Below are positions 3,208 to 39,953 of a stretch of 64,000 bases of DNA, one piece after another; the stretch's first letter is position 1; each line of letters starts with the position of its first letter. The DNA is from a virus. The notes below the pieces were generated by a model. It worked only from the letters and a program-made list of their open reading frames with translations, made no database searches and was not told the origin of the DNA. A program made the translations under genes and the position numbers. The DNA lies in the UHGV virus genome UHGV-1550212, one strand, 5' to 3'.

Positions 3208-4134
3208 TTATCGCAATTGATTCTTTGCAATGAATGCATTGATGTGCTCTGGCTTGCATACAGCACGATAGTAGAGTTCAAATACTCGTTTAGCAGATGG
3301 CAATTTGCATGCAGTCAAATCTTTATTTTGCATTATAACACCAGTGATGTACTTAATGTCATGTCGTTCAATGTCTGAACAATTATGCTTTGCAGCAAAT
3401 TCAAATGCTTGCTTGATAATTTTTGAACATTCTGCTGTGGTGCATTGCTGAAACGCTATGCAAAACTCTGCATAAGTGCTGCAGTCATTTTGCAGATGTA
3501 ATGCAACAGATGATTTCAACATTGATTCTGTTAAGTACTTTGGCAGCTTGCACAAAATTTTGACGTACTTGCACTTGTCATCTGTCACATGCACGTAGCC
3601 AGACACTGCAAGCATTCTAACATATCGAACAAGTTCTCTATGCTGTAGTGCTGTGCGCAGTATGACATTATTTTGCAGCAAAATTTCATTGTCAACTGTG
3701 CAGTTAAGTGGCAATGTGTTGTATGCTACTTTAAGATACGATAGCTTCGTTAATTGTTGTAAGCCATCATAGCCAACAAAATCTGCTGGCACAATCAGTG
3801 GCAGACTGCAAACGACTTGTCGATTATTTCTGTCAACAATTGTGATTGCTGGGTTTTGCAAGTCAAGCACAGATTTTGAGCAAAACACTTGCATGACACC
3901 TTGAACTGTGACAAATCCGAAGTTCTTGCACAATTGCATATTGCATGTACGAGCTTCTGCTGCGCTAATTGTTGCAATGGGCAACTGTTTGTCGCTACGC
4001 ACATGCATTGGAGCTGGCCATATTGGGTCAGCTCTCAATACAAGCACATGTTTATTGCAGTCATATATTGCAGCAAAATCTGCAAGATTGCTGATGTATC
4101 TTAAAGTAGTGTTACAAATCCCATTCATATGCAT
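3208..4134 (-). CDS. hypothetical protein
   Basis: ORF track 3208..4350; in-frame ATGs at 4134 and 4128 avoid long overlap with upstream gene. Confidence 0.45.
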   Translation of the reverse strand: MHMNGICNTTLRYISNLADFAAIYDCNKHVLVLRADPIWPAPMHVRSDKQLPIATISAAEARTCNMQLCKNFGFVTVQGVMQVFCSKSVLDLQNPAITIVDRNNRQVVCSLPLIVPADFVGYDGLQQLTKLSYLKVAYNTLPLNCTVDNEILLQNNVILRTALQHRELVRYVRMLAVSGYVHVTDDKCKYVKILCKLPKYLTESMLKSSVALHLQNDCSTYAEFCIAFQQCTTAECSKIIKQAFEFAAKHNCSDIERHDIKYITGVIMQNKDLTACKLPSAKRVFELYYRAVCKPEHINAFIAKNQLR

Positions 4135-4945
4135 TGTCTTGTACAGGTCCACTAATTTGAACATCGAGGCCAAAGCGCTCAAGATAGCCATCGCAGAAAT
4201 CAAGCCCATATTTGTTGCACTGTCTGAATGCATACTGGAACTTATCCAAGATTGCCCATAGATAAGGCTTTGAGCCTTCTGTGGGATATCCGCCCTTTCT
4301 GTAATGCCACCAGCGCATGATATCATGAAACTCCCAATCTTCTGCTTCACATTCTACTGTAAAGCAGTCATGATATTTTGCCATCTGAGGCCAGAGTTCA
4401 GTATTGATGCGTTGACGAGTTGCTGCGCAGTCATCAAGCAACTCAAGAAACTCTTCAGGCGCATCAATCATGGGCAGATTTGCTTCATTGACATCTATTT
4501 CTGCATCATTCGACAGCAGCTTTGTGATACGACCATTATGCTCCGCAATGTCCTCATAGACTTTTTTGCGCGTAGCATCCATAGTCGCAGTCCACTTCGT
4601 GCCCTCTTCAATTTTCGGAAGTTGCTTGTCTTTGTTTTCATTCCATTCAGGTGACTGGTCGAATATTGCCTTGCGACGAATATCGACAAGCTCCAAAAAG
4701 AAGGGCTTCGTCAACATAACAGTGTCACCCAGAATTTCTTTTGCTTGTTCAAAGCCCTCAATTTTGATTGAGTCTGCTGCAGCACAAATCTGCTCCTGAA
4801 TTTTGTCTGCAGCTTCAAGAATGATGCGAGCTTTTGTTTTGATGTCGTAAGATGCAGAATGTAAGCCAAGCTGCTCTGCAATTTCTACGGAATTTTGAAG
4901 ACGAGCCTGCATGGCTTCTTCATTGTTCTTCTTTCCTCGTGCCAT
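4112..4945 (-). CDS. hypothetical acidic protein (277 aa)
   Basis: ORF track; no motif recognised. Confidence 0.5.
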   Translation of the reverse strand: MARGKKNNEEAMQARLQNSVEIAEQLGLHSASYDIKTKARIILEAADKIQEQICAAADSIKIEGFEQAKEILGDTVMLTKPFFLELVDIRRKAIFDQSPEWNENKDKQLPKIEEGTKWTATMDATRKKVYEDIAEHNGRITKLLSNDAEIDVNEANLPMIDAPEEFLELLDDCAATRQRINTELWPQMAKYHDCFTVECEAEDWEFHDIMRWWHYRKGGYPTEGSKPYLWAILDKFQYAFRQCNKYGLDFCDGYLERFGLDVQISGPVQDNAYEWDL

Positions 4946-5677: not shown

Positions 5678-6370
5678 GTGCGGTTTACGCTCGTAGATGA
5701 TATGAGCATACATTGTGCATATATGCCAAACATATATGTGTTTGCTGATGGCAATGAGTATGCAATATCTCCAATAGGTTCACAATCACTTGATTATGAC
5801 GGCTCATGTATTGTACGTATTACCAAGTCAGACTGGATTGAAATGTTTGGCGCTGGTGTTACACAAGGCAGACTTAAATTTGGCTATGGTACAAATGAGC
5901 TTGAATTTTGTGAATTGATAAGCACTGCAACTGCTGAAGTCAAATTCGTTATTGGTTATGAGCAAAACCAGTCTGTCACTGCAACATTTAGTGATTTGCT
6001 GCATAATCCACTTGTCGCAACAAACAACAATTCTGCACAAGCAACAATTACATATACATTTAGTCATGCGACATTTAGAACAGCAGCATTTACGATTATC
6101 GGTAATGTGACATTTATTCCAGGCGGTGATGTAAGTAAAACAGCTATAATTCTTGCGCCTAATTATAGTATAACAATTAAGTACACTACGTCATCAACGC
6201 CAAAACTATTTGAGCATTCAATGACATTTGAGCGTAACAATGAAATGCTTGAGTATGTTGGCACTGAAGTAGACAGACATGCGTATTGTCAAATGAGACG
6301 TAGAACTACGGGCTCAACTGTATATTGTCATGTGTATATTGATGATAGCATGCTTAATATGATGGATTGA
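5678..6370 (+). CDS. hypothetical Thr/Ser-rich protein (230 aa; non-ATG start in track, first ATG near 5702)
   Basis: ORF track; plus-strand gene in a minus-strand context, preceded by a G7 run. Confidence 0.4.
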   Translation: MRFTLVDDMSIHCAYMPNIYVFADGNEYAISPIGSQSLDYDGSCIVRITKSDWIEMFGAGVTQGRLKFGYGTNELEFCELISTATAEVKFVIGYEQNQSVTATFSDLLHNPLVATNNNSAQATITYTFSHATFRTAAFTIIGNVTFIPGGDVSKTAIILAPNYSITIKYTTSSTPKLFEHSMTFERNNEMLEYVGTEVDRHAYCQMRRRTTGSTVYCHVYIDDSMLNMMD

Positions 6371-6390
6371 TAGTTGTAATATTGCGCAAA

Positions 6391-6425
6391 AAGAAAGCCG
6401 AACTGAATTTCAGTTCGGCTTTCTT
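6391..6425. terminator. bidirectional rho-independent terminator hairpin
   Basis: perfect 15-bp stem aagaaagccgaactg / cagttcggctttctt with 5-nt loop, A-run before and T-run after; between convergent genes. Confidence 0.6.
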
Positions 6426-6446
6426 TTTGCATACGCTTATGCTATG

Positions 6447-9400
6447 TTAGAACAGAGCAATGATGTTGTCGACAAACATAAAGCATGCATGCAGCAATTC
6501 AGCTGTCGGCATCATCTCATATGCTTTGCCATCATACATGAATCGCACAGTGACAATGGGTGACACTTCATCTTTGAATGCAAGCACAGGAACATCTACA
6601 CCTGCAGTCAATTGCACTTCAACATCCTTGTCAGCTGCTACATCTTTAGCAATCACTGTAATATCTCGACAACGACCAGCAGCTACTGCATATCTAACAT
6701 TTGTCAATGTAGCAGACATGTCAGCAAGAGCTTGCATGATTTGTTGCTGAGTAAATTGCTCAACTGACTTCTTTGCAGCCTTGACAGCTTCGATATCTTG
6801 TGTGTTTGCAAGAATCAATGCTACCACTGCAGGGTCAGAAGTAGTCCACCAACGACCATCAATTGCAAGCCACAGTCGATTGCCATTGACGTCAATTGCA
6901 TATGCATATTGAGTGTTTGGCGCCAATGCGACTTTTCGAGTGTTCTTTAAGAACTCTGCCGCATCAGGAGCCGCAACAATGTTCTTGACAAATGACGGCA
7001 GCATTTCAGCTTCAAATGTTTGTGTAGCTTCAAAGACACCGCCATGTGCATCGTCATCAATTCTGCCTGCAAAGCGTTTGCAGATTTGAATGATTGTAGC
7101 CATGCCTACCGTTGAAACGACTTGACGTTTCATTGCAGGCATTTGCAGAGGCATTGTATCTTGCGCAATGTACAATGATGTCGTATTAATAGTGTCAAGT
7201 ACTCGTGCAATGTCTGCAGTATCAACAATTACAAACCAGTCGCCGTCATGGCAGACAATAAGTTGCTTGCTGTCATTTGCATATGTCAGCAATACTGCAA
7301 TGTCATTTTTGATTGAGATTGCAGGAATCCATGCTTGTTGCAGAGGTAAGTCAAGATTTGGTGTGCCGCATGGATAAAGCGCAGATGGCTGCATAATTGA
7401 GCGGCAATCAAAACCTATTGAACTTACAAGCTGCAGAACTTCGCCACGAATGCAAGCATTACTTTGATTCTGTGTCATGTCATATGCAAGCCAACTGCAA
7501 ATTGCTTTGATTGATGACACTGGAAATGCTACGCCAATTGTGCTGTATGCAATCTTGCCGTCTGCTGACAATGACTCATCAACTGCAATGCCAGCATCAT
7601 TGAACAATGACATATCAATTGAACAATGGAATTCGCCACCAGGCATTGGACCTGCAGCAATGCCATAGCCAGGACCAAGTGACAGCCATTCTTTCATTGC
7701 ATCTGAATTGTATGACGAGAACTTGTACAACACGTATGACTTATGCGGGTCACTAACTGACTTGCGAATCTCCATCTTGGCGCCTGCTTTCTTTGCAATT
7801 GCTTTAATGTTATCGGCGTGCTTCTTTGCCTCAGACTTATCAAATTTGCCTTCATCAAGTTGAGCAATCTTGCCAAGCGCATAAGCAGTCCATGCAATTG
7901 ACAATTGATTCAGCGCGCCAACTTCTGACCACGACTTTTCTGCAAACCATGAGCCAAGACCAGATTTGTCAAGAGTTTCTTTGCGTTCAGCTTTTGTTGC
8001 AGCATCCCACCACTTGCCTGTTGCAGGCAACACAACGTCTTTGATTTGCTCCTTGCGAAGCTCATTGACACCGATTTTGCCCTCATGAACATGCGCATTT
8101 GCATGATATGCTCTAAGAGCAGCCAATGCAGCATCATATGAGTCATAGTCTTGCGGCCAGAATTCCCCATTCTTGCCAATGATGCCCCATACGCCCTTTG
8201 ACTTTTCTTGTATGACAGAATCTTTGTCACCGGCAGCTTCATTGACAAATGCTGTGTTAAGATACGCAATGACATGCTGAAGCTCTTTGTCATCTGCAGA
8301 CTCATTGACATTCTTAGCGTAATCACCAAGAATTGATTCAACTTTGCCACGCAAATTGCTTGGCATATCATCAAGGTCAAGATTGCCATACTTCGTGACT
8401 TCTGGTTGAGACAATCCAAGCAATTTCAACACCTTATCACGGTACTTGTTTGCGAGCTTCTTCCAAATCCAGCGGAATGTTACAGCGCCAATCAGAAATT
8501 TGATGAGGCCCTCATCAAGTACATGCTGTTCACGCAAATATGACGTAATGCATGAACGTTGACCATCAGTCAAGTCAACCCACATTTTATCAAGCAATAT
8601 TGAATCTGGGTTGCTTGCAATGCCAGCACCACTGCGGTTGTACACATTCATTCTGTCAATTGCTGGTGTTGCGTCATTGTCCCACCAAGCTTGTGCATAT
8701 GAACATCCAGCAGGATTTGAGATTGCCTCATTAATGTACATGACATTGAAGATTTCGCAAAGACGCTTGCGGCATTCATGTGACATAACTTGCCATTGTT
8801 CGGCAATTTTGTCTTCTGACCACTGCAGCAACATGTCTGCAAATTCTTTACCTGCGCATTGCTCAACTACACCATGTTTTGAACGCCAATAATTGTCAGG
8901 CTCAATCTGCGCAATTGCATGAACAAATGAAGTCAGATTGTATGACGCAGATTCGCAAATGCAATGCTGTTCAATGTAGCTACGAACAGCAAGTGCAGTG
9001 TCTTCCGGCAAGTTGCTATATGGTGACTCATAGATGTTTGCTTGCTGATTGAGCATATGTGGAGCAACTTCTGCAATGATTTGCTTGCGAACATTCAATG
9101 GCCATGCATTCCATGAAGATTCTACAGATTCATCAAGATGCATGCCAATTGCATCCATAACTGCATCAGCATCTTTGCCCAACAGTTCGTCAAACAATTT
9201 GTCTACTACTGCAGTGTCATATCGCAAATTTGGCTGAGCTTTTGCAAGAGCATTCATCATTGCTTTGCGTTCTTGTTTTGACGCATTGTTCCATGTGCCA
9301 GCATACAATTCTGCTGTCGCGCTTTCACAGACAATATCTGCAGCAGCATATGCTTGCTTCATAATGTCCATGAAGATTGACTTCATTTTTGGATGCATCA

Positions 9401-9653
9401 CATGATACTTTTCATTGTAGATGTCAAGTACGCCATAAACATCTTTCAATGGTCGAATGCTTTCTGATGAGCCGAATGATGGCTTCAAAATTGAATTGCA
9501 TACACGTTCAACGGTGCCACGCATAAACTTGACATCACTTCGCTTGTCACTGATAGACATAAATGCATCAATGACAGACTTGATGGTGTCATCTGCAGCT
9601 TCATTAACAAAGCCTACTGGTCGACCGCCAAACTTGTTTGTTTGTGTTGTCAT
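6447..9653 (-). CDS. large hypothetical protein (1068 aa), candidate virion/internal head protein
   Basis: ORF track; N-terminus MTTQTNKFGGRPVGFVNE-AADD resembles a cleavable targeting peptide; second FVNE and a YINE inside. Confidence 0.5.
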   Translation of the reverse strand: MTTQTNKFGGRPVGFVNEAADDTIKSVIDAFMSISDKRSDVKFMRGTVERVCNSILKPSFGSSESIRPLKDVYGVLDIYNEKYHVMHPKMKSIFMDIMKQAYAAADIVCESATAELYAGTWNNASKQERKAMMNALAKAQPNLRYDTAVVDKLFDELLGKDADAVMDAIGMHLDESVESSWNAWPLNVRKQIIAEVAPHMLNQQANIYESPYSNLPEDTALAVRSYIEQHCICESASYNLTSFVHAIAQIEPDNYWRSKHGVVEQCAGKEFADMLLQWSEDKIAEQWQVMSHECRKRLCEIFNVMYINEAISNPAGCSYAQAWWDNDATPAIDRMNVYNRSGAGIASNPDSILLDKMWVDLTDGQRSCITSYLREQHVLDEGLIKFLIGAVTFRWIWKKLANKYRDKVLKLLGLSQPEVTKYGNLDLDDMPSNLRGKVESILGDYAKNVNESADDKELQHVIAYLNTAFVNEAAGDKDSVIQEKSKGVWGIIGKNGEFWPQDYDSYDAALAALRAYHANAHVHEGKIGVNELRKEQIKDVVLPATGKWWDAATKAERKETLDKSGLGSWFAEKSWSEVGALNQLSIAWTAYALGKIAQLDEGKFDKSEAKKHADNIKAIAKKAGAKMEIRKSVSDPHKSYVLYKFSSYNSDAMKEWLSLGPGYGIAAGPMPGGEFHCSIDMSLFNDAGIAVDESLSADGKIAYSTIGVAFPVSSIKAICSWLAYDMTQNQSNACIRGEVLQLVSSIGFDCRSIMQPSALYPCGTPNLDLPLQQAWIPAISIKNDIAVLLTYANDSKQLIVCHDGDWFVIVDTADIARVLDTINTTSLYIAQDTMPLQMPAMKRQVVSTVGMATIIQICKRFAGRIDDDAHGGVFEATQTFEAEMLPSFVKNIVAAPDAAEFLKNTRKVALAPNTQYAYAIDVNGNRLWLAIDGRWWTTSDPAVVALILANTQDIEAVKAAKKSVEQFTQQQIMQALADMSATLTNVRYAVAAGRCRDITVIAKDVAADKDVEVQLTAGVDVPVLAFKDEVSPIVTVRFMYDGKAYEMMPTAELLHACFMFVDNIIALF

Positions 9654-9712
9654 ATATCAACTATTTTGATTGTCAATCAATTGATTTGTTTGTTATATGT
9701 ATGCAACAATGC

Positions 9713-9748
9713 AAAATGAACCTGCAAATTTCTTCGCAGGTTCATTTT
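9713..9748 (-). terminator. terminator hairpin downstream of nrdJ
   Basis: 13-bp stem aaaatgaacctgc / gcaggttcatttt with flanking T-run on the transcribed strand. Confidence 0.5.
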
Positions 9749-9766
9749 TGAGCATGTCATGCAATA

Positions 9767-12700
9767 TCAATTACATGCTGAATGTCCGCAGTTGGTGCAT
9801 CGAACACAGCCATCAAACTTGACCATGTCACCGCCGCATTCAGGACACTTTGCATACATCTTTGAGCCATCTTGAATATGCAGTTTCAATGCGCGCCCAA
9901 TTGCTTTGCAGAATGTTCCGACAGATGCAAAGCTTTTTGCAGTTTGGTCGACAATTTCGCCAAGGTCAATGCCATTGCGAAGCATCGTTGAGTACAGTCG
10001 AGTAATTGTTTGCTGCTCGTCTGAACCAAGACGTTCTGAGATATTATCATAGTGCTGCAAGAATGACAAATTATCACCAAGCTTGTAGTGCTTCTTATCA
10101 GTCTTTGTGATTGTCGTTTGTTCAATGCCTTGCAACTTGTCGAATTCATCTTTGTCAAGTTCAAATGCAAAGATTTCATAAGGTCGACCGTCATCACAGC
10201 CTACAAGAATACACCACTTGCGCTTATACACTGACACGCAATACACTGCAGCAGGCAATACTGGTTTTCGTTTTGAGCGATGACCAGATTGCAAGATGTG
10301 CGACTTGTCTTTTGACTGCTTGTCATCTTTTACGAGAACACCTGCACGTGAGCCATCTCGATAAATTGTGCAGCCTTTGCAGCCAGATTTCCATGCAGTC
10401 AGATAAATTTCACGAACAAGCTCTTTTGTTGCAGAGTTTGGAATGTTGACCGTTACAGAAATTGACGAGTCAATGTATTTTTGCAATGCACCTTGCAATT
10501 TCACCTTGCCAATCCAGTCAACATCTTCAGTAGTTGCCTTGTAGTATGGTGATTGAATAAGCAATTCATCAATGACTGCTTGCGGAGCATTTGACAACCA
10601 AGCTTTGATGCGAGACATTTCTGCTTCTGACCATTCAATGCCAGTATCTTTGACAAGAGTAAATTTGCCATCGCCAAGCTGCACTCGTTTACAAATCCAC
10701 TGCATCAACGGATAATGAACTACAGCGTATTCAATGAACTTGTCACCAGTAGTCTCATCAATGAAGTTGATGTCGGCCTCATTATCAACTGCAGTTGGCT
10801 TACGACGACGTTTATGTAGTGGCATAAATACGGGCTCAATACCAGACGTTGTCTGAGTCATCAAAGCTGTAGTGCCTGTTGGTGCAATTGTGGTCGTGTT
10901 AATGTTTCGACGGCCAAATTGCTGATAAGTTTTGATGTGCTCATCATCAATCAGTTCAGATAGCATACGCTGGATGAACTTTGATTGCACATCTGTGTCA
11001 TAGTCAAATATTGCAAATGAGCCACGAATCTTTGCCAAGTCAATTGACGCTTCATAAGTCGCCTTTACAAGCCATTGTTGCATAGTGACTGCGAAGTCAA
11101 TTGACTCCTGCGAGCCATAACGCAAGCCAAGCATCGCCATTGCATCGCCAAGCGCAAGGAAGCCCATGCCATATCGACGAGTGTTTGTCAGTTTATCATA
11201 AACTTTGTGCCACAAGTCAAGTTCAGTCTTTTTGATGTCAAAGTCTTCTTTATCTGACCGAACCTTTGCAATGATTCGTTGCACTGCTTCAATTTCAAGC
11301 TGCACAAGGTCATCCATGATGACTGCACAGTCATATGTATCTTTGTAGAATGTCTCAAAGTCAAATGATGCATCAGCAGTCCAAGGATTAAGCACATATG
11401 CAGTCAAATTGCGATGCGACAAAATGCAGCTTGCATATGCAGCGAGAGGCTGTTCACCGCAATTTAGTGTATTGACTACTTGCTTGTCATTGACAGCAAT
11501 AAAGAAATTGTGGAAGTCTTCTACTGTGCCATTGTACACATCTGCTTTGTTCATGTGACGTGTTGCAACGACTTTGACAATTGCATCACCAGTAGTGTCA
11601 ATGTCTGCATATTTGCTGCAGTCACCTAACGCTGCGCAAGCATCACAGCAATATGCTTGTTCACGATTGTCATAAGAAACTTCGAATTCTTTACCACAGC
11701 ACTCGCATTGTTTGATAACTGTGTTTCGTTCTGTTTTTACAAGCTCGTCAGTCTTCAATGCAATTGATAGCTTATCTGCGCTTGGCATATCAATTGCCCA
11801 CAATGAGTCATTTGTTGCAAGGTCAATTGCATTCTTGAAATCGCCATTAGCAAGCCTGAACTCATGATTTGCTGTGCAATTGATGACATGGCCGTCATCA
11901 AGCACAATTTGAATGATTTGCGCATTATGTGCAGTCAATCTGGGTCGACGCATTGTGCGCACAACGAGCTTGCCATTAGAGTCAAGACAATATACTGGAA
12001 TGTCTTCACCACTATCAGCAAGCTCTTTGAATGTCTTCAAACCTGAGCCATCAGCAACAAGTACTTTTGTGTCACCTGTGAAGCATGGATTTGTTGAGCG
12101 CTCTTCATACATTTTGCCATATGCTTTCGAGTTCGACTCTTCCATGATACGGTCCCAGAAGAACACGCCGGGTTCTGCAGATGCCCATACGTTATCAACA
12201 ATTTTGTCAAACAATGCTTTTGCATCTGATGTCTTATGCAGCTCTTGGCCATTAGAGCCACGCCAAACATGCTCAAACTGTTGTTCTGCAAGCACTGCAC
12301 GCATAAATGCATCAGTAAGCTTGATTGAAATGTTTGCGCCTGTGATTTTCGTCAAGTCCTTTTTTGCATCAATGAACTTATCTGCGTCAGGATGCTCAAT
12401 TGACAATGACAACATCAATGCGCCACGCCTGCCATTTTGTGCAACTTCTTTTGTTGATGTTGAAAAACGTTCCATAAATGACACTACACCAGAAGTTGTA
12501 ATAGCACTGTTATGCACTTCTACGTCTTCTGGACGAATGTGCGACAAATCATGACCAACGCCACCACGACGCTTCATCAACTGAACTTGCTCTTCATCTG
12601 TTTTGAAGATGCCGCCATATGAATCTGCGTCATTGCCAATTACATAGCAATTTGACATTGACGTGTAACCGCCAAGACCAATACCAGCCATTGGAGAACC

Positions 12701-12988
12701 ACCAAGCACAAACCGCTTAAAAGGCTCAAGTAAATATGCAAGTCGTTCTTTTGACAATACACGTTTGCCTGTCTGTTCTTCAAATTGTGATTCGATGCGG
12801 TCAAATTCATTGACCCAGCGCTCATGCATATCAGACAATGAGTGTTCATACAAATTGTCTTTGTCATGATGCAAGTATTTTGACATGCATATGTCAGCAG
12901 CCATTGAATCGCCTGTAAATTCATGCGTCAGTGTAGTGTGCACTTCAGCATATTCAGGCGACCCAATTTGAATGGGATGTTTTGTCAT
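9767..12988 (-). CDS. nrdJ: class II (adenosylcobalamin-type) ribonucleotide reductase with intein and C-terminal zinc ribbon
   Basis: active-site motif STNP/CGEQPL interrupted by intein; C-terminal CPECGG...CVRCTNCGHSAC zinc-ribbon tail; ATG at 12988 (track start 13048 is TTG). Confidence 0.75.
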   Translation of the reverse strand: MTKHPIQIGSPEYAEVHTTLTHEFTGDSMAADICMSKYLHHDKDNLYEHSLSDMHERWVNEFDRIESQFEEQTGKRVLSKERLAYLLEPFKRFVLGGSPMAGIGLGGYTSMSNCYVIGNDADSYGGIFKTDEEQVQLMKRRGGVGHDLSHIRPEDVEVHNSAITTSGVVSFMERFSTSTKEVAQNGRRGALMLSLSIEHPDADKFIDAKKDLTKITGANISIKLTDAFMRAVLAEQQFEHVWRGSNGQELHKTSDAKALFDKIVDNVWASAEPGVFFWDRIMEESNSKAYGKMYEERSTNPCFTGDTKVLVADGSGLKTFKELADSGEDIPVYCLDSNGKLVVRTMRRPRLTAHNAQIIQIVLDDGHVINCTANHEFRLANGDFKNAIDLATNDSLWAIDMPSADKLSIALKTDELVKTERNTVIKQCECCGKEFEVSYDNREQAYCCDACAALGDCSKYADIDTTGDAIVKVVATRHMNKADVYNGTVEDFHNFFIAVNDKQVVNTLNCGEQPLAAYASCILSHRNLTAYVLNPWTADASFDFETFYKDTYDCAVIMDDLVQLEIEAVQRIIAKVRSDKEDFDIKKTELDLWHKVYDKLTNTRRYGMGFLALGDAMAMLGLRYGSQESIDFAVTMQQWLVKATYEASIDLAKIRGSFAIFDYDTDVQSKFIQRMLSELIDDEHIKTYQQFGRRNINTTTIAPTGTTALMTQTTSGIEPVFMPLHKRRRKPTAVDNEADINFIDETTGDKFIEYAVVHYPLMQWICKRVQLGDGKFTLVKDTGIEWSEAEMSRIKAWLSNAPQAVIDELLIQSPYYKATTEDVDWIGKVKLQGALQKYIDSSISVTVNIPNSATKELVREIYLTAWKSGCKGCTIYRDGSRAGVLVKDDKQSKDKSHILQSGHRSKRKPVLPAAVYCVSVYKRKWCILVGCDDGRPYEIFAFELDKDEFDKLQGIEQTTITKTDKKHYKLGDNLSFLQHYDNISERLGSDEQQTITRLYSTMLRNGIDLGEIVDQTAKSFASVGTFCKAIGRALKLHIQDGSKMYAKCPECGGDMVKFDGCVRCTNCGHSACN
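11462..12085 (-). mobile_element. intein (~208 aa) inside nrdJ at the NPC|GE active-site motif
   Basis: begins CFTGDTKVLV (block A), TANHEF (block B), VYNGTVEDFHNFFIAVND (block F), ends ...NTLN followed by Cys+1; Cys-rich CECCGK...CCDAC insert instead of a LAGLIDADG domain. Confidence 0.65.
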
Positions 12989-13030
12989 TGTAACAGTGCA
13001 TTTAAGTGTTTTAACTGTTTTATGTATAAA

Positions 13031-13038
13031 TTGTACAA
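13031..13038 (-). promoter_or_regulatory. TTGTACAA promoter-associated motif upstream of nrdJ
   Basis: about 45 nt upstream of ATG 12988, followed by TTTATACAT. Confidence 0.4.
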
Positions 13039-13058
13039 CAATGGGCAAAATTTTGCAT

Positions 13059-13104
13059 CAACTCAAAACAGCCAAGCAATTCATTGCTTGGCTGTTTTGA
13101 GTTG
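13059..13104. terminator. 46-bp perfect palindrome (22-bp arms, 2-nt spacer), likely terminator
   Basis: caactcaaaacagccaagcaat tc attgcttggctgttttgagttg. Confidence 0.5.
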
Positions 13105-13115
13105 ATGCGCACCTG

Positions 13116-13274
13116 CTATTTTACTTGAACAGCTTCTGCAAGAATGAAACTGCAATCTACTACATCATCTTCTTCGCATTTAGAATTGAAGTACTGCTGA
13201 GCATCCTTGGCATTGTCAAATGCTTCATACCATCGATGGTCAATGTAGTCTACTAATACAAGATAGTGTTTCAT
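13116..13274 (-). CDS. small hypothetical protein (52 aa, MKHYLVLVDYIDHRWYEAFDN...)
   Basis: ATG at 13274, TAG at 13116..13118; below ORF-track size cutoff; fills the gap between flanking genes. Confidence 0.3.
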   Translation of the reverse strand: MKHYLVLVDYIDHRWYEAFDNAKDAQQYFNSKCEEDDVVDCSFILAEAVQVK

Positions 13275-13941: not shown

Positions 13942-15483
13942 TTATCTACTTGCAGAATCCCGCATTGAAGTCATGACTTGCTCTTGAATTGTTATAGGCA
14001 TGATGTTGAAGTCTGACAATTCAGCAATGTCATCAACGTCAAGAGCTCTCAATGTATCTGTGGTGCAACAAGTCACAATGATTGACTTGCGAACAAACTC
14101 ATCTGCGACATTCCACAATAGTTGACAAATTGCTCGATTGTCAAGACAAATTTCATTAACTGTACGAACAAGACTGTACCATGCAGTCACATTGTTGCGT
14201 TTCAGAGTTTCAAGCATATATCGTGCAAGCCCAAAACCTGCTACATATAACCCAGTCTGTTTGTTGAATGACTCGATTGCGTATGCATCAAACAATGCTT
14301 CTGTCATCAAGGGCATTGCTGCAGTCATTCTGTAGTATCGATAGTCAACGCAGACAATTAGCCAGTTAACATATGAATTGACTGCATATGCATATGCCTT
14401 GAAGCCAAGGTCATTCAAGATTTTGCAAACAGCATTGTAAGTCGATTCATCAGCATTGCCAAAGTTTGCAAGCAACTTAACTTTCAGAATGTCTTCACCA
14501 ATTGCATTTCTTGTAGCAGTGAATGATGGCATACATGCAAAGCTTCTTTTGCAGATGTCTGTGATAAGTTGCTGTGCATCATTTACAAGTTGTCTTGCAG
14601 CCTCAGCACGTTTTTCAGACTGTGCTTGATATTTTGGTCGCAACTGTGATGAGCCAGTCGCAGCACCATATCGCATAGCAGCTTGCCAGTCCTTGAGATT
14701 ATTTTGCAATTCACGAACATAGTCTGCAGCAACCATTGCAGATGGAGTTCTTTGTTGCTCGATTAGTTTGTTGATGTTTGCAAGCACATCTGATGCAAAC
14801 ATATCTTTTGGCTTGACTCTTGCAATTTCAGCAAGCACTGCCGGTACACGAGCAATACCGCGAGGTTCATTTGAAACTACTACTGCATAGTCTACAAGTG
14901 CCTCACATACAAGCTGCTCATCAACAAAGTACTCAGGATTCTGCACAGCATCTTCAACAACTGCAATCAATGTTGCTCTACGATTGTCATCAGGTTTGTT
15001 GCCAAACAGCTCAATGTACAGCATGTCTGCTTGCTGGTCTGTCATTGAACCTGCGATGTCAATTGACTTTGCAAGTTTGTTAAGCAGTTCAGCTTGCTTA
15101 CTTGACAATCTGACTTTGTATGACGACTCTACGGCTTCTTTGACTGCTTTGAGTTTTCTATCAATGTCAAGGCTGCTTTCATTGACATTCATGCCGACAA
15201 TACTTGCAGCTTCAGTGTTAAATTGCTCAACAGTTTCTGCTGCAGTTATTGGCACTGACACAATAGATTGTTTTGCATTTGCTGCAAGCTGATTGAGTCG
15301 ATTGACTGCTTCAGAATCTTGCACAACTGCAAGATATCTTACGCACAGCTCATCAATCTGTGAAAGATAACTTTGGGTCATGTTTATCGAAAAAATGTTG
15401 TTTCTTGACGAATAGCTGTTGGATGCAATTTGCGGAAACACTTCGACATTTCTAAGTTCTGATGATGACAACAATGTTTCCAT
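13942..15483 (-). CDS. hypothetical protein (513 aa), possible virion protein
   Basis: ORF track; contains GMNVNE-SS motif. Confidence 0.45.
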   Translation of the reverse strand: METLLSSSELRNVEVFPQIASNSYSSRNNIFSINMTQSYLSQIDELCVRYLAVVQDSEAVNRLNQLAANAKQSIVSVPITAAETVEQFNTEAASIVGMNVNESSLDIDRKLKAVKEAVESSYKVRLSSKQAELLNKLAKSIDIAGSMTDQQADMLYIELFGNKPDDNRRATLIAVVEDAVQNPEYFVDEQLVCEALVDYAVVVSNEPRGIARVPAVLAEIARVKPKDMFASDVLANINKLIEQQRTPSAMVAADYVRELQNNLKDWQAAMRYGAATGSSQLRPKYQAQSEKRAEAARQLVNDAQQLITDICKRSFACMPSFTATRNAIGEDILKVKLLANFGNADESTYNAVCKILNDLGFKAYAYAVNSYVNWLIVCVDYRYYRMTAAMPLMTEALFDAYAIESFNKQTGLYVAGFGLARYMLETLKRNNVTAWYSLVRTVNEICLDNRAICQLLWNVADEFVRKSIIVTCCTTDTLRALDVDDIAELSDFNIMPITIQEQVMTSMRDSASR

Positions 15484-28021: not shown

Positions 28022-29737
28022 TCAAATCCAGCCGTAGTCGCTGTGGATAGCGAAGGTGAGATAAGCCAACTCGGGATACATACCCGTCTCCGCGAGAGCG
28101 TAATCCGACTCAATCAGCAACTTAGGTGCTGCTGTACCCTCAGCGGTTAATTCCACACTTGATGCAAGGTCATATGGCATGAATACACATCCCTGGTTGA
28201 CATTCTCTACGTCAACGCCGTCAGCAGTCTTGTTCGTACGAAGAACGAGAACAGTGTTATCGTTCAGCGGCTGCTTAGGATTGCAATAGATTTTAATGCC
28301 AGCCAAGTCACCTGCATAATACAGGTTCTTGTTGTCCTGTACCAGCGTATTGTCAAGAGCTGCAACAAAGTTCTTCTGAGCCTTAATTGCAACCAAGGCA
28401 ATCGTATTGACCACAGCAGCATCACCAGCACCGAAACGCGACAGGTTGCCAATGATTGTCGAAGCAGCCAGGATACGAGTTGCGATACGAGCCTGACGGG
28501 TAATCTGGTTCTCAGCCGAGCTGTTCGATTCAGCGTTAGGAACCATGCCGAACTCAGCCGTGCGGTCTACACCCATCTTGTCAACGAATGCAGGAGCCTG
28601 GAATTCCGAGAATGCCTTGGCAGTCGAACCAGCGTAGCCAATGTACAAGTTCAGGTTGTAGCCCTGAGCAGCCAACAGCTGAGCATGTGTCGTAACACCA
28701 AGTGCACGCATGCGCTTCAGACCATTGTCGTTGATTGACTGCGTGATTTCATTCTGCATTGCATTCTTGATGATTGCAACTGCATCCAAACCGCGAGCAC
28801 GGAGGTCCTTAACCTGGCGACGAGTCAGAGCACCCCAAGTCTGGTACGTCTTAACTTCGATAGCCTTTGAGAAGGTGCGGAGCTCCAGCATGTTCGGGTT
28901 GCCAGCCTCAGCCTCAGAACGAGACATTGGATTGCCGTCAAGGTCATCCATTGCAGCGAAGCCGTGGATGTGTTCGTCACCAGCCGAAACCAGGTCGAAC
29001 ATAACCTCAGTCATGCCAGTCAGCATGTCAGTTACAGCACCTGTAGCGTCAACCGAGTAGATTTTCGATGCAGCCATTGCAACATCAGCCAACGACTTGT
29101 CAGGAGCAACAGTCATTGCGCCACCAGCGCCAACGGTATATACGCCTTCATTGCGAACTACGAGGTAGCCTGCAACACGCGATACCTGTACGAACGTTAC
29201 CTTGGCAGCAAGCTCACCAGCAGCTGAACCGCCGATGTACAGAACTTGACCCTTCTTGAGGCCATGAACCATTGTCTGCGAAGCAACATTGTACAACTCC
29301 TTCCACTTGATGAGGAAGTAGCGAGGACCCTTGGCTGCGTTCAACTTGCCACCACCATACACGTAGTCTACATAGTCCAGCTGAACCAGCGGGCTGTATA
29401 CAGGAATGGCCGGGAGCAGGTCGAACAGAATCGTGTTGGCTGCGATGTTCATGTTCAGAGCCAGAACATTGGCAGCTACATCGATTGAACCACGCTTACG
29501 CGACGGGTCATGGAACTGTGCTTGCGTACCTGGGTCAGCAGGGAAAGCGACCGGACCTACGCCATTGAGATTCTGCGAATACGTCGACTCAAACGACTCG
29601 TTCATATACTGAACGTTCTGAGCGATTGATGCGAGCAGATACTTCTTAGCGGGCGAAAGCTTGGAGTCAAACGACTCATCAAGAACAGGGCCCCACTTTT
29701 TCAGCAATGCATCAATCTGTGTACGTTTTGCGTTCAT
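28022..29737 (-). CDS. major capsid protein (T4 gp23-like)
   Basis: N-terminus MNAKRTQIDALLKKWGPVLDE parallels the gp23 N-terminal pattern; 571 aa; markedly GC-rich C-ending codon usage; followed by a strong terminator. Confidence 0.7.
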   Translation of the reverse strand: MNAKRTQIDALLKKWGPVLDESFDSKLSPAKKYLLASIAQNVQYMNESFESTYSQNLNGVGPVAFPADPGTQAQFHDPSRKRGSIDVAANVLALNMNIAANTILFDLLPAIPVYSPLVQLDYVDYVYGGGKLNAAKGPRYFLIKWKELYNVASQTMVHGLKKGQVLYIGGSAAGELAAKVTFVQVSRVAGYLVVRNEGVYTVGAGGAMTVAPDKSLADVAMAASKIYSVDATGAVTDMLTGMTEVMFDLVSAGDEHIHGFAAMDDLDGNPMSRSEAEAGNPNMLELRTFSKAIEVKTYQTWGALTRRQVKDLRARGLDAVAIIKNAMQNEITQSINDNGLKRMRALGVTTHAQLLAAQGYNLNLYIGYAGSTAKAFSEFQAPAFVDKMGVDRTAEFGMVPNAESNSSAENQITRQARIATRILAASTIIGNLSRFGAGDAAVVNTIALVAIKAQKNFVAALDNTLVQDNKNLYYAGDLAGIKIYCNPKQPLNDNTVLVLRTNKTADGVDVENVNQGCVFMPYDLASSVELTAEGTAAPKLLIESDYALAETGMYPELAYLTFAIHSDYGWI

Positions 29738-32709: not shown

Positions 32710-35547
32710 CTACTCAGCAGATGCACCTTGCAGTGACAATGTTGTACGATGTACGCCAATTCGAATGCCTTGAGCATTGATGATTTCAGTGTCAAGTACA
32801 ATGAATCCGCGAGCAATCGTTTCATCATCATTGTTGCTGCTATCGCAGACATTCGTGTACGAAACTGCGCCACCGGCTGCAACGATGCCATCCATGAAGT
32901 TGTCTGCTTTTGTTTTGACCTGCAAACGAACATTTGCAGTGTTTCGTTTGTACTGAGCAGACTTCAGATATGGCTCAATGTTGTCAGCGACATAGATGAG
33001 CAACTCAAGATTTTCAATGTAGCTGAATGCGCTGGTGTAAGCTACTTGTGCAGAACGAGATGTCAGCATTGTGATGACGCCTTGGTCTGAACGAGCGAGC
33101 ATGTTCCAACCTGCAGGTTCAAGGTCATCCATATCAGACCCTTCACCTTGCGAGACAATCATGTCAATGTCGGTTACACCAACACCAGACAGTGGCCACT
33201 CATCACCAGCAACGACGTCAAAGACATGCTTGCCTGCTTCTGTATGCTTTCTCATGAAGACATTCGACAAGATACCTGTTGCAGGAATCGTCATATCATC
33301 AATGCCATCATTGTAGCGAACATTGGCTACATATGTGATGAACGGTGCGCCATCAGTTTGACCTGCGAAGCTGAACAACTTGCTGTATGGTTTATCGGTG
33401 TTACCACCTGCAGCACAGTACTTAGACTCAATTGGGTCACCTGCATTGTCCTTAAAGTACGGGTCAGTTGAGCGGAACAAGTCATACTTGGTTGGCAGAG
33501 CAGAGAATGCGATTGCACGTTTTGAATCATTGCAAATCTTTGCAAACTCGTACTTTTGATTTGCTGCAATGTATGTCTTGAATGGGTCAACTACATAACG
33601 CCATTGACATTGATTGTGGTCCATCAAGCTACGATAAACGCCGCCTGAAATGAGAGCTTGCAGTACTTCTGTCTGACGTGCAGATGTGCCATCAACAAAT
33701 TGAGTTGCACGAAGAGCTACACCATGTAGATATGCGCCCTTGAAGAACTTAACTTGGTCAACAAGCTTCGTCAATGACCAAACAGACGCCTGCGAGGCGT
33801 ACTTCATCATTGAGCCATCTGCAAGTTCAAATTCGCCTTCAGCACCTGCAGCTTTGTATGCCAATGCACCAGTGAATTGATATTCAATCAGCACTTTGTT
33901 TTCTGCAAATGCGTCGTAGACATTCTTCTTCTCAAGCGGCGACAAATCAGCTTCAGTGATTGTGATTGGCATACCGCCATACTTGAGTGGCTTGTCTAAT
34001 GGCAGGCCATTTGAATCATATTCAACAAGGTCACCGCCATATGAAATTGTCTCACCTGCAGCTCTTGCTTTACGAGCTTTCGTTGATGAAGTTTCTGCAT
34101 CTGCAGACTCTTCGCCGCCAATTATGACTGTTGAGCCTTGTGGATAGATGAAGTTGCCCTTTGCATCCTGAGGGAATGCTACCTTTGCACCTGATTCGTT
34201 AGTGTACATTGGAATGCCGCCTTCCTTGCCAATGACAGGAACTGCGCGATATTCAGCTACAACTGCGCGACTTGTACAACGTACTGGCGAGCCATCTGCA
34301 CCAATAAAGATGTCGCCAAGCGAAATTGGCAACACTGGTGCAACAAATGAAGTCTTTGAAGCTTCACCTGGCTGCACAAATGGAACCATCACATTAACAA
34401 ACTCAGATGACACGAAGTCCTTGAGCTGTTCTTTTGTGATTGCGACATCTGTTGCTGTTGGCGTGCAGTCAATCTTTTCAGGATTGATGTCAGTTGACGG
34501 ACGAGCCATGCCAAGATATTGATGCGTAGCATCATCAGCAAACAGTGGACCTGCAGCGTCATCTACAGAAATGTAGTTCGAACCAAAGATGTCCACTGCA
34601 CGTTGGAAACGAGCATCTTCGATATCATTCGAATTGTAGAACTCGTCAACCTTGTCAGGGTCAATCTTACACATGATACCCGTCGTGTCTGACACTGCAT
34701 TCACAGCAGTTTCCAATGACAACTTGTTACCATTGATATCAAGCAAGTCAGGAATCAATGAGCCAGATACACGACCCATGTAGCCAGATGCAGCAAGCTT
34801 TGACAATGCCTCAGGACCATACATGCCATCAACTTGTGCACGGATACCATCCTTTGTGAAGTACTTGCCATATACAGTCGAACCTGCAAGTGACTCATAG
34901 TTCGTCAGCTTTTCAGAGAAGAACCAAACGTCAACCATATAGTCTGACACAAGGTCATTGCAATTCACGCCAGGCACATACATTGATGGGAAGCGGTCTT
35001 GAACTGACTTGATATCATAATCATAGCCAGTCAATGTCGTCGGCGTAATGAAGATTGTTGCAGACTTGTTTGTAAGTGTTGAGAAGTTGAGCAGTTGTAC
35101 AGGGTCAGTGCCAACTGCATTGAGCAGATTCAATGGCTCAGCTTTCCAGAAGTTTGATGTATCATAGACATCCTTAAATGGAACGTCTACAGGCGAGCCA
35201 TCTTCTCCTGAGCTGTTTGCAGCAAAAGTCACTCGTGACAACACATCGCTATCATTGAATGAGCGCAAGTTCAACACAAGAATTGGGCTTGTTGCAAGCA
35301 TTTGCTCTGCAATGAGACCAGCGAAACAGCCGGCACGCTCCAAACGCTTGTCACGTTGACCGAAAATTTCATGCAGCTGGTCTGCATCTTCAACAAGCGC
35401 GGCGCGATTGACCGGACCGTTCTTCCACTGGCCAGGCAGCAATCGAAGTGTTTGAGCGGGCAGTGAGTCAAGGCGACTTGCGTCAATGAACAGACGATAT
35501 GTCCCGACTGACTTGAACCGTTCAAATAAAGAAGTGTTATTTGCCAT
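32710..35547 (-). CDS. contractile tail sheath protein (gp18-like)
   Basis: N-terminal pattern PGQWKNGPVNRAALVEDADQLHEIFGQR parallels the gp18 W-GP...FG motif; large protein immediately upstream of tube gene; ATG at 35547. Confidence 0.65.
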   Translation of the reverse strand: MANNTSLFERFKSVGTYRLFIDASRLDSLPAQTLRLLPGQWKNGPVNRAALVEDADQLHEIFGQRDKRLERAGCFAGLIAEQMLATSPILVLNLRSFNDSDVLSRVTFAANSSGEDGSPVDVPFKDVYDTSNFWKAEPLNLLNAVGTDPVQLLNFSTLTNKSATIFITPTTLTGYDYDIKSVQDRFPSMYVPGVNCNDLVSDYMVDVWFFSEKLTNYESLAGSTVYGKYFTKDGIRAQVDGMYGPEALSKLAASGYMGRVSGSLIPDLLDINGNKLSLETAVNAVSDTTGIMCKIDPDKVDEFYNSNDIEDARFQRAVDIFGSNYISVDDAAGPLFADDATHQYLGMARPSTDINPEKIDCTPTATDVAITKEQLKDFVSSEFVNVMVPFVQPGEASKTSFVAPVLPISLGDIFIGADGSPVRCTSRAVVAEYRAVPVIGKEGGIPMYTNESGAKVAFPQDAKGNFIYPQGSTVIIGGEESADAETSSTKARKARAAGETISYGGDLVEYDSNGLPLDKPLKYGGMPITITEADLSPLEKKNVYDAFAENKVLIEYQFTGALAYKAAGAEGEFELADGSMMKYASQASVWSLTKLVDQVKFFKGAYLHGVALRATQFVDGTSARQTEVLQALISGGVYRSLMDHNQCQWRYVVDPFKTYIAANQKYEFAKICNDSKRAIAFSALPTKYDLFRSTDPYFKDNAGDPIESKYCAAGGNTDKPYSKLFSFAGQTDGAPFITYVANVRYNDGIDDMTIPATGILSNVFMRKHTEAGKHVFDVVAGDEWPLSGVGVTDIDMIVSQGEGSDMDDLEPAGWNMLARSDQGVITMLTSRSAQVAYTSAFSYIENLELLIYVADNIEPYLKSAQYKRNTANVRLQVKTKADNFMDGIVAAGGAVSYTNVCDSSNNDDETIARGFIVLDTEIINAQGIRIGVHRTTLSLQGASAE

Positions 35548-35653
35548 GTTCGTTATCGTATTTGTTGTAAATTGTGAAATGTTGCTTTGTTTGATTATAA
35601 CTTGATATATGTATGTATATGATGACATCAAACATGTTGTTGACCAAAATCAA

Positions 35654-39820: not shown

Positions 39821-39953
39821 ATTTGAATTGTGTTTGAAAGTTTGCAAATTTTTGTTGTTATTGATTATATATGCAAGGCAGACTTGTGTGTTGAAAAATT
39901 GCAAAATTTCAGTTATGTGTACATAACAAAACCATCCAAATCAATTCAATTAT

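Follow-up and report, generated by a model that had tools for sequence, protein, structure and literature searches.

We analyzed 64,000 nucleotides of the virus genome UHGV-1550212, and this whole stretch is referred to as the window hereafter. On its minus strand lies nrdJ, the gene for a class II, adenosylcobalamin-dependent ribonucleotide reductase (RNR), and the subject of this report is an intein of 208 residues that interrupts the catalytic motif of the encoded enzyme. The gene sits in a single long open reading frame (ORF) at 9767-13048, with its likely start at the ATG at 12986-12988, and the 1073-residue product is also predicted on metagenome contigs by public gene callers. By profile the host protein belongs to the NrdJ family (TIGR02504, NrdJ_Z; 448 bits against a cut-off of 400), and the RNR barrel domain PF02867 matches it at 5e-74. 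The gene, its exteins, and the parts of the intein were placed as follows.

9767 to 12988, minus strand: nrdJ precursor gene, class II adenosylcobalamin-dependent ribonucleotide reductase with one intein; 1073 codons and a stop, ATG at 12986-12988 (profile scores)
12086 to 12988, minus strand: N-extein, 301 codons, C-terminal end ...YEERSTNP (aligns with Thermotoga maritima NrdJ up to STNP)
11462 to 12085, minus strand: class-1 mini-intein, 208 residues, Cys1 to Leu207-Asn208 (translation, TIGR01445, PF14890, AlphaFold2/Foldseek)
12047 to 12085, minus strand: block A, CFTGDTKVLVADG (CFTGDTKV), with the Cys1 nucleophile (translation, alignment A1)
11864 to 11875, minus strand: block B, T71-A-N-H74 (translation, alignment A1)
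11636 to 11707, minus strand: predicted FCS/YacG-like treble-clef zinc finger CECCGKEFEVSYDNREQAYCCDAC, C127-x2-C130-x15-C146-x3-C150 (cysteine pattern)
11462 to 11539, minus strand: blocks F and G, VYNGTVEDFHNFFIA...VVNTLN, ending in Leu-Asn208 (translation, aligned to the VYD...HNF of DnaE inteins)
11459 to 11461, minus strand: Cys+1, the first C-extein residue (counterpart of Cys322 in the STNPCGE of T. maritima)
9767 to 11461, minus strand: C-extein, 564 codons and a stop, beginning CGEQPL (alignment; DNA similarity of 96% to a sister phage, introduced below, starts exactly at 11461)

Translation of 11462-12085 on the minus strand gave exactly 208 residues, CFTGDTKVLVADG...VYNGTVEDFHNFFIAVNDKQVVNTLN, open throughout, and the plus-strand translation of the same segment was full of stops. 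The segment is flanked by ...ERSTNP on its N side and by CGEQPLAAYASC on its C side. When the precursor was aligned with T. maritima NrdJ (1xje), the alignment fell into separate pieces with a break at STNPC; upon deletion of the 208 residues in silico it became continuous, with STNPCGEQPLAAYASC facing STNPCGEIGLSDYEAC. In the intein-less nrdJ, the insertion bond is preceded by TCAACTAATCCA and followed by TGTGGTGAACAG. Because the alignment runs straight through STNPC once the intein is deleted, Cys+1 corresponds to T. maritima Cys322, and the catalytic residues as a whole are in register: N-P-C-G-E, the N-terminal Cys (msnC), and ayasC match C134, N320, C322, E324, and C333 of the T. maritima enzyme. 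In class II RNRs, Cys322 is established as the thiyl-radical cysteine; Asn320 and Glu324 flank it, and Cys333 belongs to the redox pair. When the spliced extein is compared with intein-free NrdJ proteins of ~850 residues from Alistipes and Rikenellaceae, hundreds of them align over 97-100% of it, with 44-45% of the residues identical. The junction reads NP|CGE (the bar marks the insertion bond), the Cys being position +1 of the C-extein. The preliminary description of this stretch, made from its letters alone, had given the junction as NPC|GE in its heading and as NP|CGE in its text; the alignments with intein-free NrdJ fix the junctions exactly and agree with the second.

The insert itself scored 45 bits with TIGR01445, the NCBIfam profile of the intein N-terminal region (cut-off 24.5), and 35.2 bits (1.3e-8) with PF14890, slightly below the cut-off of 35.8. 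Its best sequence matches in the PDB were DnaE inteins and the NrdJ-1 intein. An AlphaFold2 model built from a 15-sequence alignment (pLDDT 85.9, pTM 0.83) matched inteins in all of the top 27 Foldseek hits to PDB entries, with E-values down to 6e-9; mini-inteins from DnaB, DnaE, and RecA led these matches, at TM-scores of 0.7-0.8 on the target. Alignment A1 shows no variation at C1 and H74 and at least 90% conservation at T71. The segment combines a removable in-frame insert, Cys1 with T-x-x-H, a terminal Asn followed by Cys+1, and a predicted HINT fold, as a class-1 intein does. The penultimate His is replaced by Leu207, a residue at which His is common but not defining, and in block F an Asn stands in for the usual Asp (VYNGTV vs. 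VYDIGV of DnaE inteins). A search with family profiles found no second intein and no second copy of the zinc finger elsewhere in the 64-kb window. All of the motifs quoted in the preliminary description, namely block A, TANH, block F, the Asn end, Cys+1, and the Cys-rich segment, are present by coordinate. Taken together, the junctions, the intein profiles, the predicted fold, and the intein-free orthologs confirm at the level of sequence its central proposal, a real intein lying directly N-terminal to the NrdJ thiyl-radical cysteine. The alternative that it had itself raised, that the 208 residues form an ordinary lineage-specific domain of NrdJ, is refuted by the alignments, and we give it practically no weight. 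Beyond the segment being in frame nothing speaks for such a domain, and against it stand the absence of the segment from T. maritima NrdJ and from the hundreds of 850-residue orthologs, the TIGR01445 match above its cut-off together with the HINT fold of the model, and the three different inserts that near-identical host genes hold at this peptide bond.

To place the intein among its relatives, we used it as the query of an exhaustive HMMER search, which returned 2799 proteins at E<=1e-3, of which 881 reached E<=1e-10, and extracted the inteins from the best 150; a word-indexed protein search with the intein alone gave one match only. The insertion site was x-N-P|C-x-E in 124 of the 150, and CGE followed the bond in 119 of these. 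Among the 124 same-site relatives, 70 are 440-520 residues long and a graded series leads down to 140 residues, while the pattern C-x2-C...C-x2/3-C occurs at the same place in 107 and is degenerate in several others. Their last residue is Gln in 73 (59%) and Asn in 51. At the penultimate position Leu is found 51 times, Arg 21, Lys 16, and His once. The preliminary description was correct about the penultimate Leu but had contrasted it with a usual His; because His occurs in only 1 of the 124 same-site relatives and Leu in 51, the Leu-Asn end is, judged by these counts, normal for the family. As an observation on the family at large, its noncanonical set of residues (a frequent Gln end, almost no penultimate His, and the block-F Asn) is kept from phages to Asgard archaea, and it may reflect a distinct way of catalyzing the cyclization step.

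A Pfam scan of seven family inteins (312-500 residues) placed HNH_3 (PF13392) above its cut-off in four, all of them at least 415 residues long. In full-length forms the finger follows the HNH domain, which is lost in the forms of 410, 352, and 312 residues. The window intein matches family members at E-values of 1e-25 to 1e-42, and a profile of the family's N-terminal HINT half matches the window ORF at 2e-39. It has the NP|C site, the HINT halves with a VY(N/D)GTV..H block F, and the finger pattern; it gives no match to HNH_3. Since HNH_3 is absent and a region is deleted relative to the sister-phage intein described below, we class the window intein, on these sequence features, as a nuclease-less derivative of a family of NrdJ inteins with HNH and an FCS-like zinc finger and not as a complete member.

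The family extends well beyond phages. In a cellular set of 78 loci, obtained by a profile scan of genome contigs, nearly all inteins are 450-500 residues long, sit at NP|CGE, and show an HNH pattern, and the finger pattern is matched by most; 75 of the 76 resolved loci are at an NP|C(G/S/A)E site. The carriers are Pyrinomonadaceae, other Acidobacteriota, cable bacteria, Chloroflexota, Saccharibacteria, the candidate phyla radiation (CPR), Eremiobacterota, and Asgard archaea. Deinococcales loci, including the 481-residue HNH form of Deinococcus frigens DSM 12807 (L156), show the HNH pattern and leave the finger pattern unmatched. Among 80 viral loci from IMG/VR, 79 are at the NP|C site, with 41 long forms that have HNH and finger, 11 mid-length finger-only forms, and six short finger-only forms. 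The full-length HNH_3 and finger inteins, found in the sister phage, on huge-phage and IMG/VR contigs, and in Pyrinomonadaceae, Ca. Electronema, and Promethearchaeota, occupy the same site as the window intein. Their HINT halves are 35-55% identical to it, they have the same finger with its Glu and Arg-Glu, and they share the VYNGTV..HNF block F and the missing penultimate His. The window intein differs from them in being without the HNH domain and ~240 residues of helical linker and flanks, and in ending in Asn where 59% of the same-site relatives end in Gln.

The comparison that best resolves what was lost is with the sister phage, a 181-kb contig (L005; ENA ERZ27260843 k119_20060) whose NrdJ precursor, P0153, is encoded at 6001-9987. 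At the same site it carries a 463-residue intein ending in ...NNRQ, ~45% identical to the window intein in the HINT parts, in which the N-terminal HINT half extends to ~95, the HNH motif lies at ~151-190, the finger at 330-353, and the C-terminal HINT half begins at ~414. Ahead of the finger, 234 residues in the sister intein face 31 in the window intein (~200 missing); after it, 60 face 18 (~40 missing). As the stretches are unequal on both sides of the finger, the finger was evidently spared by deletions on both sides. No nuclease family was found by Pfam in the 208 residues, and no HNH family matched even at E<=1. The preliminary description had supposed that the Cys-rich segment takes the place of a LAGLIDADG endonuclease, a notion that fails on both counts: there is no LAGLIDADG signal, and the full-length relatives carry HNH_3 followed by the same finger. 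We likewise rejected a LAGLIDADG-type intein as the class of this element, as no such Pfam match was found and the homologous full-length inteins carry HNH.

Within the window intein the finger comprises residues 127-150, with E128 and R141-E142 among its conserved positions, and matches the family finger profile at 1.3e-14. An alignment of the finger region from 80 sequences that are ~30% identical has four invariant Cys and one invariant Arg; the Glu after the first Cys, the Glu after the Arg, and the Ser after the third Cys are each at least 90% conserved. The consensus reads x-V-x-K-x-C-E-x-C-G-x-x-F-x-V-...-R-E-x-x-(F/Y)-C-S-x-x-C. Besides the putative ligands C127, C130, C146, and C150, the window intein has the cysteines C129, C147, and C156; in the phage population the variants C129Y and C156Y occur, and the ligand cysteines never change. 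Pfam zf-FCS (the FCS/MYM-type zinc finger, PF06467) and the "treble clef" family DUF4379 matched the finger weakly, below their curated cut-offs. The search for a solved structure by PDB sequence returned only weak, non-significant matches (the N-terminal finger of an archaeal alanyl-tRNA synthetase, AlaRS, at E 0.002; polyhomeotic, L3MBTL2, and L24e at E>0.5). The finger also weakly matches the accessory region of three HNH-endonuclease PHROGs (best E=3.7e-4), and additional zinc-ribbon domains are common in phage HNH endonucleases (PMC3592412). It thus resembles the treble-clef fingers of YacG, FCS (MYM-type), and TRASH-L24e and the zinc ribbons of phage HNH enzymes but, reaching no curated cut-off, is not a demonstrated member of a Pfam family. 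We infer that the finger binds zinc and read it as an FCS-like accessory module surviving from an ancestral HNH homing endonuclease, probably DNA-binding in origin.

Among family members shorter than 270 residues, 21 have the finger only, five are without it, and a few have HNH remnants. For most of the short finger-only inteins, the nearest neighbor by HINT sequence is a full-length form with HNH and finger and not another short one. Because the neighbors of the short forms are mostly full-length, these comparisons suggest that the nuclease was lost repeatedly and independently with the finger retained, which purely neutral decay does not predict. One explanation is that the finger is kept by selection, be it as a structural clamp for the atypical C-terminal chemistry, as a zinc or redox sensor of splicing and dNTP (deoxyribonucleotide) supply, or as a binder of nrdJ DNA. 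We regard this as possible, if on the unlikely side. It would account for the deletions on both sides that spare the finger, for the 21 short relatives with a finger against five without and their mostly full-length nearest neighbors, for the invariant Cys and Arg and the conserved Glu, Glu, and Ser in such divergent sequences, and for ligand cysteines that stay fixed in the phage population while nonligand cysteines mutate. Control of splicing by zinc and redox is moreover documented for other inteins (references cited in PMC4031507 and PMC7765530). The same-site relatives of 140, 178, and ~209 residues, however, do without the finger, so it is not universally needed; the linkers between finger and HINT domain are of low confidence in the AlphaFold2 model (pLDDT 58-66), with no sign of tight packing; and free-standing relatives, described below, have partly degraded fingers. 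A narrower form of this explanation, in which the finger is adaptive specifically in nuclease-less inteins at the RNR site because it couples splicing and RNR activation to zinc or redox or still binds the nrdJ target DNA, strikes us as speculative and more doubtful still. If it held, binding of target DNA by the finger might shield nrdJ from related HNH inteins or guide their action, and it would explain why independent lineages deleted HNH on one side and a helical domain on the other while sparing 24 residues.

Taken as a whole, we hold it to be very probable that the element is a class-1 mini-intein at the thiyl-radical cysteine of NrdJ and a nuclease-less derivative of the HNH family that kept its finger. 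Under this reading, the precursor would be translated with the NPCGE finger loop of the enzyme split by 208 residues and catalytically dead; that the unspliced precursor is inactive is expected because the insertion divides this loop. The intein would then splice by the class-1 mechanism (PMC4031507). An N-S acyl shift at Cys1, aided by Thr71 and His74 of block B, would be followed by attack of Cys+1 on the thioester (trans-thioesterification), and cyclization of Asn208, here without a penultimate His, would free the intein. An S-N shift would finally remake the STNP-CGEQPL peptide bond and restore the active site, and Cys+1 would from then on serve as the thiyl-radical cysteine of NrdJ. In its ancestry, the intein would go back to the ~480-residue cross-domain inteins of this site, from which it would differ by the loss of HNH and of the helical stretches on either side of the finger, with the finger itself kept. 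It would no longer home by itself because the HNH domain is lost, and it would persist because precise loss is rare and because the occupied site blocks cleavage by related HNH inteins.

Several points weigh against this reading. Pro-1, the lack of a penultimate His, and the block-F Asn are each unfavorable in some studied inteins. Tolerance of Pro-1, Leu207, and the block-F Asn is argued from conservation in the family and from other inteins (PMC4031507), and not from the window protein. The view of the finger as a vestige fits poorly with its recurrent retention, and sparing it requires two separate deletions. The list of the best 150 relatives is biased toward query-like sequences, and the family classes were drawn by regular expressions and nearest-neighbor identities and not by phylogeny. 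As to the first of these points, Pro-1 belongs to a conserved motif of the host protein, and splicing in the absence of the penultimate His is documented for some inteins (PMC4031507).

The same residues could be read as signs that the intein is splicing-dead and nrdJ decaying or nonfunctional: Pro-1, Leu for the penultimate His, and Asn for the block-F Asp are all noncanonical. We consider this very improbable in view of the population. The 90%-identity cluster of the window protein has 35 members, and in all of the 15 that were listed, on contigs of up to 177 kb, the frame is intact, the protein has 1073 residues, and neither the ligand cysteines nor the catalytic residues vary. Between the window and variant L009, synonymous codon changes outnumber nonsynonymous ones by 97:12 in the exteins and by 17:7 in the intein. 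The nucleophiles, the block B Thr and His, and the catalytic residues of the extein are all conserved, and the noncanonical residues are the consensus across hundreds of relatives, some of which lie in essential nrdJ genes of cellular organisms. By these codon counts the intein is under purifying selection, weaker than that on the enzyme, as is expected if splicing must be maintained.

Between the window and the sister phage, DNA identity is 95.1% in the N-extein and 93.8% in the C-extein, and of the codon changes 132 are synonymous and 13 nonsynonymous. BLASTN similarity between the two stops at the first base of the C-extein (11461) and, on the other side, 39 nucleotides into the N-terminus of the intein (12047), so that block A (12047-12085) is the only part of the intein with DNA similarity to its counterpart. 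A third relative, P0154 (L008 706-3921, Logan SRR14089581), whose extein is 80% identical, carries an unrelated mini-intein of ~200 residues at the same NP|CGE bond, whose block F has the canonical VYD and whose C-terminal residues are VHN; the stored locus of this relative does not translate exactly to the query. Because near-identical exteins carry different inteins in the window, in P0153, and in P0154, the replacement of alleles at the NP|C site outpaces the divergence of the host gene.

Such turnover raises the question of whether the mini-intein is itself still mobile, either through an HNH nuclease that acts in trans and comes from a co-infecting phage with a full-length allele or through homologous recombination via near-identical exteins. 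The sister phage, with exteins 94-95% identical at the DNA level and mostly synonymous differences, yet a divergent 463-residue intein whose similarity ends at the junction, fits this idea, as does the unrelated VHN-ended mini-intein of P0154. We nonetheless judge it unlikely. Classical homing cannot swap inteins at an occupied site that has no intact recognition sequence. The listed homologs held no intein-free nrdJ allele of this phage lineage, and in the comparison with L005 no co-conversion tract was evident in the exteins beside the junctions, where the mismatch density is as elsewhere.

The site before the thiyl-radical Cys is the most frequent intein site in RNRs (PMC2677866). Contiguous RNR inteins at this site share with the window intein the NP|C-x-E bond, the interruption of the finger loop of the enzyme, and Cys1 with Cys+1. 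Most of those described carry a homing endonuclease; the window intein has none and holds a zinc finger only. The NP|C site is probably that of the widely distributed 'rir1-b' allele in the InBase naming (Soucy et al., PMC4071816). In the open-access literature we found no direct description of a zinc finger within an intein or of HNH NrdJ inteins of such an architecture, which we treat as weak evidence. The class II RNRs of Thermus phage G20c/P23-45 (KX987127) and of huge phage LR756501 have inteins at the same NP|C, with an N-terminal HINT half 34-43% identical to ours. Read from the translation without a profile, the G20c intein has an apparent LAGLIDADG-type insert (LNP|C...SGN|CAE), and that of LR756501, read in the same way, has an HNH motif and no FCS finger (TNP|C...VKN|CGE). 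The Mth RIR1 mini-intein of Methanothermobacter, a natural nuclease-less intein of ~134 residues in an RNR of class II type, likewise follows Pro-1 but lacks a zinc finger and ends canonically; we use it as a lead only.

Two further systems are instructive. The NrdJ-1 split intein from GOS metagenomes (PDB 8UBS; PMC2677866) is a phage-derived NrdJ intein with detectable similarity to ours in sequence and fold, but it is naturally split, linked to a free-standing endonuclease gene, and without a zinc finger. An RNR intein that prefers a C-terminal Gln is documented in Chilo iridescent virus and is a precedent for efficient splicing with atypical C-terminal residues (Gln, no His; PMC4031507); its host is a class I RNR, unlike that of the window intein. 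HO, a HINT-derived protein with a zinc-finger module, offers an analogy only: in contrast to the window intein it has retained a LAGLIDADG nuclease, does not undergo splicing, and has its fingers C-terminal.

A search with the mini-intein profile also returned many stand-alone ORFs of 219-233 residues (P0127, P0286-P0301), whose clusters have as many as 261 members. Each ORF has a Met and four to six residues ending in LNP or VNA, an intein of the family, CGE with at most five more residues, and a stop; the zinc finger in them is partly degraded. One such ORF, bounded by stops, lies on L010 (5001-5693; ENA ERZ27297671 k141_699877, 145.7 kb), flanked by guanylate kinase on one side and a split nrdD/nrdG cluster on the other; further ones are on L011 and L012. 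No similarity to NrdJ exteins was found within 5 kb of the ORF on L010. From their layout, these ORFs look like free-standing inteins with vestigial stubs of the NrdJ splice sites, and such an intein could be domesticated or stranded. Since the clusters hold up to 261 members, the arrangement is conserved and not a one-off.

The window is phage DNA, with almost all genes on one strand. PHROG matches identified a major head protein (28022-29737), an unusually long tail sheath of 973 residues (32710-35631), and topoisomerase II. The capsid protein shares ~35% identity with its counterparts in three jumbo phages of ~220 kb (Sphingomonas PAU, Chryseobacterium MA9V, and Tenacibaculum PTm1), and the host of the intein is a jumbo phage. 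The same phage is present in IMG/VR on a 175.6-kb contig (L013, 96% intein identity) and on ENA/Logan contigs of up to 177 kb; megablast found no nucleotide-level relative of the gene among GenBank phages. No tRNAs were found in the window. Adjoining the tail sheath gene is a 1399-residue ORF (35705-39904, minus strand) in which a head maturation protease profile covers only the first ~350 residues, leaving ~1000 outside the match.

The C-extein ends in a Cys-rich tail, CPECGGDMVKFDGCVRCTNCGHSACN (9770-9847, minus strand), just ahead of which the TSCPD domain matches weakly (PF12637, 19.8 bits against a cut-off of 22.8). The NrdJ of huge phage LR756501 has a similar tail. The tail in the window resembles the C-terminal zinc-finger or redox tail reported for many class II RNRs. 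For the large minus-strand ORFs around nrdJ, 6447-9653 (1068 residues), 13942-15483 (513 residues), and 3208-4350 (380 residues), PHROG gave no match at E<=1e-5; the first of them is kept downstream of nrdJ in all related contigs. The gene immediately upstream varies, a 52-residue ORF in the window (13116-13274, minus strand) vs. an unrelated 101-residue ORF in the sister phage (L005 5570-5875). The flanks of this variable gene are 94-96% identical between the two, which makes it a second variable cassette beside the intein-bearing gene. Between the small upstream ORF and the start of nrdJ lies a perfect inverted repeat of 54 nucleotides (13055-13108), GCATCAACTCAAAACAGCCAAGCAATGAATTGCTTGGCTGTTTTGAGTTGATGC on the coding strand followed by AAAATTTT; it is kept in the sister phage and is likely a terminator or regulatory hairpin.

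For annotation, the locus is best described as one nrdJ gene with an intein and not as an unusually long RNR, and the intein adds a further phage example to the best-populated intein site in RNRs. As a compact natural intein with Pro-1, Cys+1, and no penultimate His, it may be of value in protein engineering. The comparisons outline a cross-domain family that ranges from ~500 down to 140 residues, often ends in Gln, and has a zinc finger that outlives the nuclease. With nrdJ exteins ~95% identical that carry divergent alleles at the site, and with a graded family around them, these phages would make a good system in which to study the homing cycle and the replacement of inteins in phage populations.

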